From Alphaproteobacteria bacterium (GTDB lineage: Bacteria > Pseudomonadota > Alphaproteobacteria > GCA-2731375): a DNA stretch of 64,000 bases. The notes below the pieces were generated by a model. The model was not told the DNA's origin. It saw nothing but the letters and a program-made list of their open reading frames with translations, and ran no database searches. Within the stretch, counting starts at the first letter, position 1; each line of letters begins with the position of its first letter. Both the position numbers and the translations under genes were made by a program. The stretch spans positions 9,240-73,239 of the forward strand of contig CBDDBZ010000004.1 in the NCBI GenBank assembly GCA_965225945.1, read 5' to 3'. This document shows positions 60,494 through 62,917 of the stretch, in pieces.

Positions 60494-60845
60494 CTAATCG
60501 ACCCGGTTGCCGGCGGTGTCGATGTGGCCCCAAGTCCCGCCGCTCACCGTCGTGTGCTCCCCCTTGCGCATCAGTTTGCAACCGCGACAGACCGCGGCGA
60601 GGCCGTTCGCAAACGGTTTTGCGAAGTCGAAGCGGGGCGGGATGACGACCCGGCCGAAGGCATCGTAAAAGCCGAACTTGCCGTCACTGACGAAGCGCGC
60701 ACGTCCTTCACGAAACGGGTCGGGGCCGTTGTCGGTGACGAAGGGTCTGACGAGGACCCGTCCCCGGCGATCGATGAGCAACCACTCATCCTCGTTCGCC
60801 ACCGCCGCGAGCCCCTCGGCCGAGAACTCCCGTGCAAGAATGAAC
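60494..60845 (-). pseudogene. 5'-truncated WG-repeat protein
   Basis: FILAREFSAEGLAAV...DNGPDPFREGRARF...KFGFYD..G.VVIPPRFDFAKPF.NGLAAV; frame runs into the element end at 60846. Confidence 0.8.
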
Positions 60846-61018
60846 CTTGCCTATCCGGTTATCACCCACAACCCACTATATGTAGTGTGTCTCCTTGGAC
60901 TGCAGGCAAGGGCCCGGCGCAGGCGCATTGAGGAGGCGATCCGGCTAATTCTTGATTGTTCTGAAAACCGAACCGGAGTTTAATTCACGTCACGTACTTA
61001 ACATCGGGGGACGGAACG

Positions 61019-61327
61019 GTGGCGACCAAGGGAAAAACGAAGAAACCCACGGCCAGACGGGAAGCTGCTGATGAAACGACATCGTCTGAGCGATTGACGG
61101 CACTAGTCGAAGAAAGCGACGCGCTGGCACGAATCGTTGCGAAGAACCCGTCCGCGCCTGTTAGTCTCCTGCGCGTTTTGAGTCGCAGCGAAGACGAAGC
61201 GACACGCAAGAACGTGATCCTCAATCCGTTTACTTCATATGACGTATTGAGCGAACTTGAAAACCAGTTCACAGAGCTATTTGTGAATAATCCGGCACTC
61301 GAATCCTACAATTCAATGAAGCTCTGA
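61019..61327 (+). CDS. Leucine-rich-variant/HEAT-like repeat passenger protein, probably truncated
   Basis: VAKNPSAP..LL..LS, RKNVILNPFT..DVL..L, NNPAL repeats; lower GC. Confidence 0.55.
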   Translation: MATKGKTKKPTARREAADETTSSERLTALVEESDALARIVAKNPSAPVSLLRVLSRSEDEATRKNVILNPFTSYDVLSELENQFTELFVNNPALESYNSMKL

Positions 61328-61576
61328 TTTCCTGGAATATTCCATCGGTGTCGTTCACCTCCGATTTCAGATAAATTTCAATGAAGTGACGGTCCTTTAT
61401 GCAACGTGGCGTTTTGCCAAATCCGACTCGATGATTAGGATTTCCACCACGCTAAAGTGTCGCCTAAAAGCCGCTACAATGCCGTCCGAGTCCCTGCTCG
61501 GCATCGCCGGAGATATCTCCGCTTCGACCTGCACCGAGCTTTACTCAGGAAAATGGGTGCACACTACATATCGTCC

Positions 61577-62545
61577 CTATCCGGTTAAGGCAGGCAGCGC
61601 TCCCTGCGATTGTATACCGTCGACCAGTTCCCTGTAGGTGATGGTCGGTCGGGTCATGGCGCGGTGCAACACGAAATCGGCAAGGTCGAAGATGCGTTTG
61701 CGCCGGTTGAAGCGGTAGTTCCATTCCCGGACGTAGCGCGGCAAATGCTTGGCGCTCACCCCGTGGTAGGTTCCGTTGAGCCACGTCTTCACGTTGGAAA
61801 ACAGGACATGGACGACCGGCATGAGCTGCTCGGCGTTCTTGCCTTGGCCTTGAACGACGGGCTGGTGGCGATAAGTATCGCCAAGCTTGGCGTAACTCTT
61901 GAAAGCGTCGCTGTCGAGGCGGCTTCCCGGCTTCACCGAGGCGCGCACGAAGTCGCCCAACTCACGGGCGGTGGCCTCGGGCAGGATGGCGAGCCGCGCG
62001 GCGCCGGCGGCGAAGCCGCTCCCCTTGATGCCCTTGCCCGACCCGACCGGCCACTTCTCGACCGCCATCACCAACAGGCTCTTGTTCGGGTTGGAAAGCC
62101 CGCGCCCCCGGCTCTCCGGCTTGCCCCGCCCGCCGTAATAGCTCTCGTCGACCTCGACCAAGCCCTCCAGCGGGAACTCCGGGCGCTCCGTCAGGGCATG
62201 GCGCAGCTTGTGGGCCATCAGCCAGGCGGTGTCGTAGCGCAGGCTCAACTCTCGCGACAGAAACAGCGCCGAGACCCCGCGCTTGTCGCGCCCCATCCAC
62301 CACGCCGCCAGGAACCATTTGCGCAACGGTGTGCGGGTGCGGTGGAAGACCGTGCCCGCGGTCACCGATTCCTGATGGCCGCAACCGGCGCATTCGAAGA
62401 CCCGCGGCCGCGTCTTCAATTGGTAGTTCCGCCTCTCGCCGCAACGCGCGCAGACGTAGCCTTGCGGCCAGCGCAGCCGAGCCAGCGCCTCGATGCAGTC
62501 CGCCTCCGATCCATGGCGTTCGAGGAACTCCAATATCCCGCTCAT
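61577..62545 (-). CDS. IS1595 transposase (intact ORF)
   Basis: Zn ribbon CARC/CAGC, TAGTVFHRT, VEVDESYYGG, DSD...Y, VH..FSNVK, HL.RY..E..YRFNRR; GGAGG RBS. Confidence 0.95.
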   Translation of the reverse strand: MSGILEFLERHGSEADCIEALARLRWPQGYVCARCGERRNYQLKTRPRVFECAGCGHQESVTAGTVFHRTRTPLRKWFLAAWWMGRDKRGVSALFLSRELSLRYDTAWLMAHKLRHALTERPEFPLEGLVEVDESYYGGRGKPESRGRGLSNPNKSLLVMAVEKWPVGSGKGIKGSGFAAGAARLAILPEATARELGDFVRASVKPGSRLDSDAFKSYAKLGDTYRHQPVVQGQGKNAEQLMPVVHVLFSNVKTWLNGTYHGVSAKHLPRYVREWNYRFNRRKRIFDLADFVLHRAMTRPTITYRELVDGIQSQGALPALTG

Positions 62546-62581
62546 CGAATAGTCCTCCAAAAGCTCCAGCCGATGCGATCA

Positions 62582-62613
62582 GCCTACACCTCTATGGAGA
62601 ACATATCAAGAAC
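62582..62613 (-). promoter_or_regulatory. IS1595 transposase promoter overlapped by a LexA box
   Basis: Minus strand TTGATA-N17-TAGGCT; GAAC-ATATCAA-GAAC at 62599..62613 straddles the -35. Confidence 0.7.
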
Positions 62614-62787
62614 ATTCGGAGCCCATCCTGCTTTAACCAGATAGGGACGCTACATATAGTGGGTGTGGGTGATAACCGGATAGGCAAGGATCAAAGCATT
62701 GAAATCAAGCAACTTTCTTGAGCCGCGTGCGGCCGGTGGGATTTCGTTCTGCAAATTCTCCGATTTTGCTAATTTATATACAATATA

Positions 62788-62825
62788 CCGTATTTGCAGT
62801 ACTATTCCGTATTTGCAGTACTATT
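62788..62825. repeat. 19-bp tandem duplication
   Basis: CCGTATTTGCAGTACTATT x2. Confidence 0.9.
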
Positions 62826-62917
62826 AATGAATGATCGATTCTCTCGCGCCCGAGATGCGCGCACTATGGGTCAGCGGAAATGGGTGCCGTTTGACCGCTA
62901 TGCAAAATGCAAGACTT

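Follow-up and report, generated by a model that had tools for sequence, protein, structure and literature searches.

The 64,000-nucleotide stretch of DNA analysed here (the window) contains a real, recently active mobile cassette with an unrelated insertion sequence nested in it, and the case for reading this element as a mobile insertion cassette (MIC) is strong. The sequence shows that the cassette derives from an ISAcr1-type element of the IS1595 family in which a small LRV-repeat gene has taken the place of the transposase gene, both ends and some 90 bp of transposase tail being retained. A resident 1105-bp IS1595 element of the same genome, IS-B, would then move the cassette in trans and duplicate 8-bp G-W-W-n-n-W-W-C-like targets, as the common tips and targets suggest. 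The 16-bp palindrome at positions 27-42 of both ends is an inner site inherited within the ISAcr1 clade. Most likely it would give the transposase a second place to bind, and at the left end it may also overlap the -10 element of the transposase promoter. Finally, an unrelated IS1595 element, IS-A, has landed in the palindrome, its 8-bp duplication leaving the outer site nearly intact. We assign a probability of about 60% to this explanation as a whole, that is, a mobile insertion cassette with IS-B-driven movement and a clade-specific inner end site.

Anatomy and spread of the cassette

Excision of IS-A together with one copy of its duplication leaves a transposase-less element of 757 bp in the window, in agreement with the reconstruction of the earlier note; the genome consensus is 755 bp. 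The long terminal repeats, put at about 45 bp in that note, are perfect over 43 bp in the consensus, and each holds the palindrome, the left one exactly where it had been placed (Table 1). IS-A does lie at the right-end palindrome, bracketed by CTACATAT, which occurs twice, starting at 61564 and 62650. Two extra single bases in the window copy, 60870 and 60913, are absent from public contigs in 3/4 and 4/4 runs, respectively. As the uninterrupted joint (skipping 1086 bp) is found in contigs of 4/4 public runs from three studies, the reconstruction is more than a paper exercise. The public runs with a habitat given are sponge metagenomes. The cassette also occurs in contigs from RNA runs, such contigs being uninformative on transcription.

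Table 1 Coordinates of the cassette, its nested element and the adjoining features in the window
Feature	Position	Strand	Description
WG-repeat gene, 3' part	60497..60845	-	Pfam WG_beta_rep, E 7e-15; frame open to the cassette junction
Left flank 8-mer	60838..60845	+	Agrees with the cassette/IS-B target consensus; no repeat on the right
Left terminal inverted repeat of the cassette	60846..60889	+	43 bp in the consensus, one base more here; first 15 bp equal the IS-B tips
16-bp palindrome	60873..60888	+	Position 27-42 from the consensus end; NrdR matrix score 17.9 bits, partner box absent; in related elements the site overlaps the putative -10 of an inward-facing promoter
Passenger gene, 102-aa helical LRV_2 protein	61019..61327	+	Pfam LRV_2, E 2.6e-8
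Remnant of the 3' end of an ISAcr1-type transposase gene, with the inner half of the cassette's right repeat	61476..61571	+	In intact copies, 126 bp with 77% identity to the right end of IS-B; translates as transposase tail
Left copy of the 8-bp IS-A duplication	61564..61571	+	CTACATAT; the junction forms a 12.7-bit box at 61561-61576
IS-A, nested IS1595-family element	61572..62649	-	1078 bp; transposase ORF 61577-62560; 20 genome loci
Right copy of the 8-bp IS-A duplication	62650..62657	+	CTACATAT; outer box 62647-62662 kept at 17.2 bits
Outer part of the right terminal repeat of the cassette	62650..62688	-	Lies to the right of IS-A
Right flank 8-mer	62689..62696	+	Also found ahead of the left end in a further cassette copy (contig C31)

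The genome holds 70 paired copies of the cassette, of which 52 have their own 8-bp duplication, as well as 17 unpaired ends; among the 57 copies whose left end is exact, 22 are identical. These counts support the earlier claim that IS1595-type transposases move this passenger-bearing cassette in trans. A point absent from the earlier note is that the window copy is not itself flanked by a target duplication, the sequences on its two sides being GAATGAAC and GATCAAAG. These unmatched flanks probably reflect recombination between cassette copies, misassembly being the alternative. On the left, the frame of the WG-repeat gene is open right up to the junction, and its 5' part is therefore missing. 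On the right, the stretch 62689-62917 is repeated at several other loci and includes a 19-bp tandem duplication (62784-62821); an IS3-type element adjoins it from about 62918.

The passenger was correctly described as a low-GC repeat-protein gene: it encodes an LRV_2 protein and has a GC content of 0.51 vs 0.66 for the genome. We found 234 homologues at E 0.001 or less; among the matches listed, the best 120 of the 234, identity ranges from 74 to 99% and most proteins are 102 aa long. The query used found none outside the source genome in a 400-genome sample of the phylum, although G002, G017 and G029 contain partial cassette DNA. The metagenome locus L214 carries a diverged 582-bp cassette with a passenger 70% identical, an 8-bp duplication and boxes at both ends. 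A fold model of the passenger (pLDDT 67.9) gave a best VIA Z of 5.3, Atlas matches to LRV clusters only and no match in a Foldseek search. A complex prediction for the passenger with the IS-B transposase scored 0.00 in both runs and was counted neither way.

The cassette corresponds to the definition of MICs, exemplified by MIC231 of Bacillus cereus, in PMC3129680. Like these, it has IS ends around a passenger (the 102-aa LRV_2 ORF) and no transposase gene, only a C-terminal remnant being left in the 755-bp consensus. Transposition is evident from the 8-bp duplications that flank 52/70 paired copies, and the genome contains an autonomous cognate, IS-B, with the same tip and target consensus. 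It differs from MICs such as MIC231 in its IS1595-type ends, its roughly 70 copies and its conserved 102-aa passenger. The cassette is thus a known kind of element, here a transposase-less passenger carrier that outnumbers its presumed helper several-fold and has probably rearranged the genome of its host.

IS-A itself has the tested features of an IS1595 element. The hallmark of the family is one transposase with an N-terminal Zn ribbon and a DDE_Tnp_IS1595 domain (PMC8101967), and the 327-aa product of the IS-A ORF contains both Pfam domains, PF12760 and PF12762, above cut-off. IS-A also has terminal inverted repeats and an 8-bp duplication, the two flanking 8-mers matching at 15 copies among its 20 loci. 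The accessible parts of PMC5737581 and PMC12561309 give nothing further on IS1595 end structure. Three IS types besides IS-A are found inside cassette copies.

The probable mobiliser of the cassette

IS-B is present in 12 paired copies, including two double-right-end forms, and its transposase is 82% identical to that of ISAcr1 and, in an alignment of 13 rows, 38% to that of IS-A. We take ISAcr1, from its RefSeq label, to be an IS1595-family element of Acidiphilium plasmids. It has the same 15-bp tip and an 8-bp duplication, and each of its ends carries the palindrome at position 27, with scores of 16.5 and 14.4 bits. ISAcr1 is autonomous, whereas the cassette retains only ends and a transposase tail; IS-B departs from ISAcr1 in that its left box lacks the central AT. 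Within the IS1595 family, the ISSod11 group has the tip motif nnnGcnTATC, with which the cassette and IS-B tips presumably agree, while IS-A has C for G.

Three lines of sequence comparison, namely targets, tip and right-end remnant, make IS-B, an ISAcr1-like sister, the most likely mobiliser of the cassette. The cassette and IS-B tips agree at 15/15 bases, whereas IS-A differs at positions 2 and 4. The last 126 bp of the cassette are 77% identical to the right end of IS-B and can still be read as a transposase tail. A G at position 1 or a C at position 8 is found in 48/52 target duplications of the cassette and in 51/55 distinct duplications of IS-B in other genomes vs 2/14 of IS-A; the full G......C pattern occurs in 26/52 cassette duplications and in 0/14 of IS-A. 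At two loci the cassette and IS-B even stand head to tail on one common 8-mer. On this evidence the mobiliser would be IS-B rather than the IS-A nested in the window copy, a correction to the earlier reading. IS-A does have a 12-bp tip core in common with the cassette and is present at 20 loci, but given its different target consensus, the two mismatches within its first four tip bases and the homology of the cassette right end to IS-B, movement by the IS-A transposase is very improbable.

Two 1121-bp IS-B derivatives, G000:C19:59701-60821 and C34:188810-189930, carry two right ends each and have their own 8-bp duplications.

The inner end site and its likeness to NrdR boxes

The earlier note had suggested that the nucleotide sensor NrdR may bind the cassette ends and had called for the palindrome to be scored against an NrdR matrix. 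We built this matrix from the box pairs upstream of long nrdJ in 20 relatives and seeded it with the six conserved NrdR positions, so that it is not independent of the published motif. On it the palindrome reaches 17.9 bits, on a par with the best true boxes (leave-one-out median 12.05, maximum 17.7) and, taken as a single box, a near-ideal match. No fewer than 180 of the 201 sites of at least 14 bits in the genome come from this cassette/IS-B family. All six conserved positions (C4, A6, A8, T9, T11 and G13) are present in the palindrome, which also conforms to the box rule of PMC13584703 (C4, G13, A6 and T11, with at least 63% AT between C4 and G13).

NrdR operators are described in PMC9110341 and PMC13584703 as pairs of such 16-bp near-palindromes 31-32 (or 42-43) bp apart, and the cassette site resembles them further in overlapping a sigma-70-like -10 at left ends. 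It differs in that there is one box per end, at right ends also inside the coding tail. No partner at 31, 32, 42 or 43 bp was found for any of the three boxes in the window; the best partner at NrdR spacing scores -1.5 bits at the consensus left end and -8.3 bits at the consensus right end, and the cassette flanks provide one for 1/152 sites. As this defining feature of an operator is lacking, we do not class the palindrome as an NrdR operator. Isolated boxes are reported not to be bound by E. coli NrdR, which tolerates linkers of 15-16 or 26-27 bp (PMC13584703). PMC9110341 attributes the need for paired boxes to an NrdR tetramer whose two sites lie 80 Å apart, and describes a kink of about 90 degrees in each box. 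A single box is nevertheless functional in vivo at topA of P. aeruginosa (PMC4409342), a precedent that runs against our preferred explanation.

The host has an intact nrdR (TIGR00244 above cut-off, with D15, R17 and the RRRR motif), and nrdR was present in 5/5 other hosts tested, which is weak support for an NrdR role as 77% of bacteria have the gene (PMC13584703). Around the genome G710 a clade member was found in 1/201 genomes, and none was reached in a host without nrdR. The suggested comparison with the genome's own nrd promoters involves a single gene, a short nrdJ, the only ribonucleotide reductase gene found, with no box upstream; the search of the 96.6% complete assembly did not recover the long nrdJ, the gene that carries box pairs in relatives and that almost all of them possess. 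The short nrdJ (C36:199750-202182) is preceded by a GAAC-N7-GAAC site that we presume to be LexA-like.

To follow the site across relatives, ends were sampled by the 15-bp tip alone (129 metagenome stretches, one dropped, plus L135), and those assigned to transposases at least 69% identical to IS-B were counted as clade ends. In these the site lies at position 27. The four positions that matter most to NrdR (PMC13584703) hardly vary, C4 being retained in 28, A6 in 27, T11 in 26 and G13 in 28 of the 28 ends. This near-invariance also runs contrary to our preferred explanation. The single-box rule is passed by 15/16 right and 4/12 left clade ends vs 0/14 ends of more distant elements that use this tip. 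Where the tip occurs without the site, the transposases are just 55-67% identical, a pattern that would fit an accessory host-factor site equally well. ISAcr1 and a Rhizorhabdus element have the site at both ends, and a Rhodococcus element (47% identity) lacks it.

At right ends the site falls within the coding tail, where the Thr codon inside it is ACA in 17/17 and a Thr 13 codons upstream is ACC in 17/17. The synonymous base favoured by NrdR is fixed, while the middle position, to which NrdR is indifferent, alters the residue (Cys to Phe). This constraint on synonymous sites argues for selection acting on the DNA itself, in an NrdR-like pattern. At left ends the central AT is lost in 6/12, including IS-B's own, which fails the single-box rule. 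These ends show the register TTGAC-17-TAGTGT, where a repressor would act. A consensus promoter scan called no inward terminal promoter in the cassette, for which we infer one from related left ends alone.

None of 42 box-bearing ends has a partner of at least 1.5 bits at NrdR spacing, and in related two-box cassettes the boxes are 35 or 37 bp apart. A site at a fixed position in both ends, with repeats at variable spacing, would suit a transposase better than a rigid NrdR tetramer. Two-box ends of this kind belong to the cassettes at L188/L189, L192 and L203, which lack a transposase, share the tip and carry different passengers, among them a 347-aa ORF. Miniature elements of 123-178 bp with the same tip and the position-27 site are found at L152, L157, L166 and L184.

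A true NrdR site, with one box per end bound singly, as at topA, or by a tetramer bridging the transposase-paired ends, would explain the score above that of the best true box, the NrdR-type conservation down to synonymous sites, the intact host nrdR and the family's share of the high-scoring genome sites. It would also draw on the single-box precedent (PMC4409342) and the 90-degree kink (PMC9110341); the DNA would be kinked, transposition or transposase expression would be tied to dATP status, and about 180 boxes could soak up host NrdR. Against it stand the missing partner, the spacing of 35/37 bp in relatives rather than 31/32 or 42/43 (PMC13584703), the poor left ends, where a promoter would lie, and the fact that among 47 repeat families of the genome this group alone reaches 12 bits at an end. 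NrdR binding as proposed in the earlier note is not supported, since the second box is missing and related elements show their poorest match at the end where the promoter would lie. We regard the NrdR link as an attractive, unproven minority reading, for the site as such rather unlikely. Slightly less likely still is its fullest form, in which functional NrdR boxes in ISAcr1-clade ends let the tetramer bridge or bend the paired ends and couple transposition to the dNTP state, while the ~180 boxes titrate NrdR from replication-gene targets and act as a sink for a second IS1595. As to the role of the palindrome, binding by the transposase has about even odds, and NrdR on the one hand and another host factor or merely bendable DNA on the other appear equally and distinctly less probable.

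Sites for host factors are known in IS ends, such as those of IHF in IS1 and IS10 and the DnaA box in IS50. By analogy, an accessory site lying a little inward of the repeat tip could serve to bend the DNA or to tie transposition to replication. The literature searched, mostly open-access papers, contained no report of NrdR boxes or of NrdR as a host factor in IS ends, nor of this cassette. The inner site shows an NrdR-box conservation pattern across a widespread clade. If NrdR does bind, this would be a link between dNTP sensing and transposition that is absent from the literature searched. If the transposase binds instead, a second binding site would be mapped for a family with poorly described end recognition, with the warning that NrdR regulon scans get swamped by such ends.

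Target choice of IS-A and other NrdR-like boxes

The palindrome had also been proposed as a preferred IS target. IS-A occupies it at 3/20 loci, two right ends and one left end, in the same 8-bp phase and orientation. The right-end host copies on contigs C4 and C39 carry different bases at consensus position 624, which speaks for two independent insertions. On the NrdR matrix none of the other 14 duplicated sites exceeds 0.7 bits, and hence IS-A does not seek NrdR-like boxes in general. These 14 sites have A/T at -1 in 14/14 and at +1 in 13/14, and mostly A at -3, T at +3 and TA at 2-3, preferences that the palindrome matches throughout. IS-A would have landed there because the site fits its generic 14-bp target and exists in 152 copies.

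Target models trained without the palindrome give figures that are rough, as there are 14 training sites. The palindrome's predicted share of IS-A hits is 0.3-0.5% (8 bp), 1.4-2.5% (10 bp), 3.8-5.3% (14 bp) or 1.6-3.2% (20 bp). Under the 14-bp models, which cross-validate best, 3/20 hits have P 0.04-0.09, and 2/19, with C4 and C39 as one event, P 0.16-0.27; under the narrower models (8-10 bp) the excess is significant, at P 0.013 or less. A modest true excess is possible, and the case for specific targeting is weak. Aimed insertion, guided by the sequence or by NrdR, would make the cassette ends a safe harbour and perhaps a transposase promoter, the inward -35/-10-like register of the cassette then pointing into the IS-A transposase gene. 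The hits in one phase and orientation at both cassette ends, with the difference at 624, speak for this idea. We consider it improbable, as 17/20 loci lie elsewhere, the generic A/T flank pattern is matched, P would be 0.16-0.27 if C4 and C39 are one event, the duplication centre is one base off the palindrome axis, and three other IS types have entered cassette copies too. The recurrent same-phase hits thus stand, but generic preference and the many copies of the site account for most of the claimed target preference.

The idea that IS ends in general carry NrdR boxes was rejected, as no group but that of IS-B attained 12 bits among the 47 repeat families. A common Zn-ribbon origin of NrdR and the transposase was also dismissed as the source of the look-alike, the two showing no significant similarity (E 0.41).

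Several transposase 5' regions are among the top 19 matches of a paired-box scan. Upstream regions of IS630 elements reach at least 10 bits in 4/17 distinct cases, three of them from one subfamily of this genome. In this subfamily (G000:C18:17562, C29:12184, C29:49008, C39:556268 and C37:454146) an NrdR-like box of 12.6-17.9 bits lies right before the start of the transposase gene, and at 31-32 bp from it there is a weak partner of 2.5-6.0 bits; most other IS630 relatives have no box. A 15.4 + 3.0-bit pair spans the start of what we take to be an ISAzo13-like transposase gene (G000:C10:17958-18005). In 30 loci of other alphaproteobacteria, no transposase adjoining paired boxes was recognised by eye.

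Of all single boxes in the genome, the one with the highest score (18.2 bits) lies upstream of an HU-like gene (G000:C38:400281) and is without a partner. NrdR-like box pairs also precede genes at G000:C8:26381, C39:267926, C38:355629 and C32:35535 and at loci L268, L274 and L277. Judged by their translations, the genes in G000 are presumably parA, a ybjN-like gene, gcrA and parE, with dnaN, ftsZ and ctrA added when the loci are included, hinting at a wider cell-cycle regulon in alphaproteobacteria.
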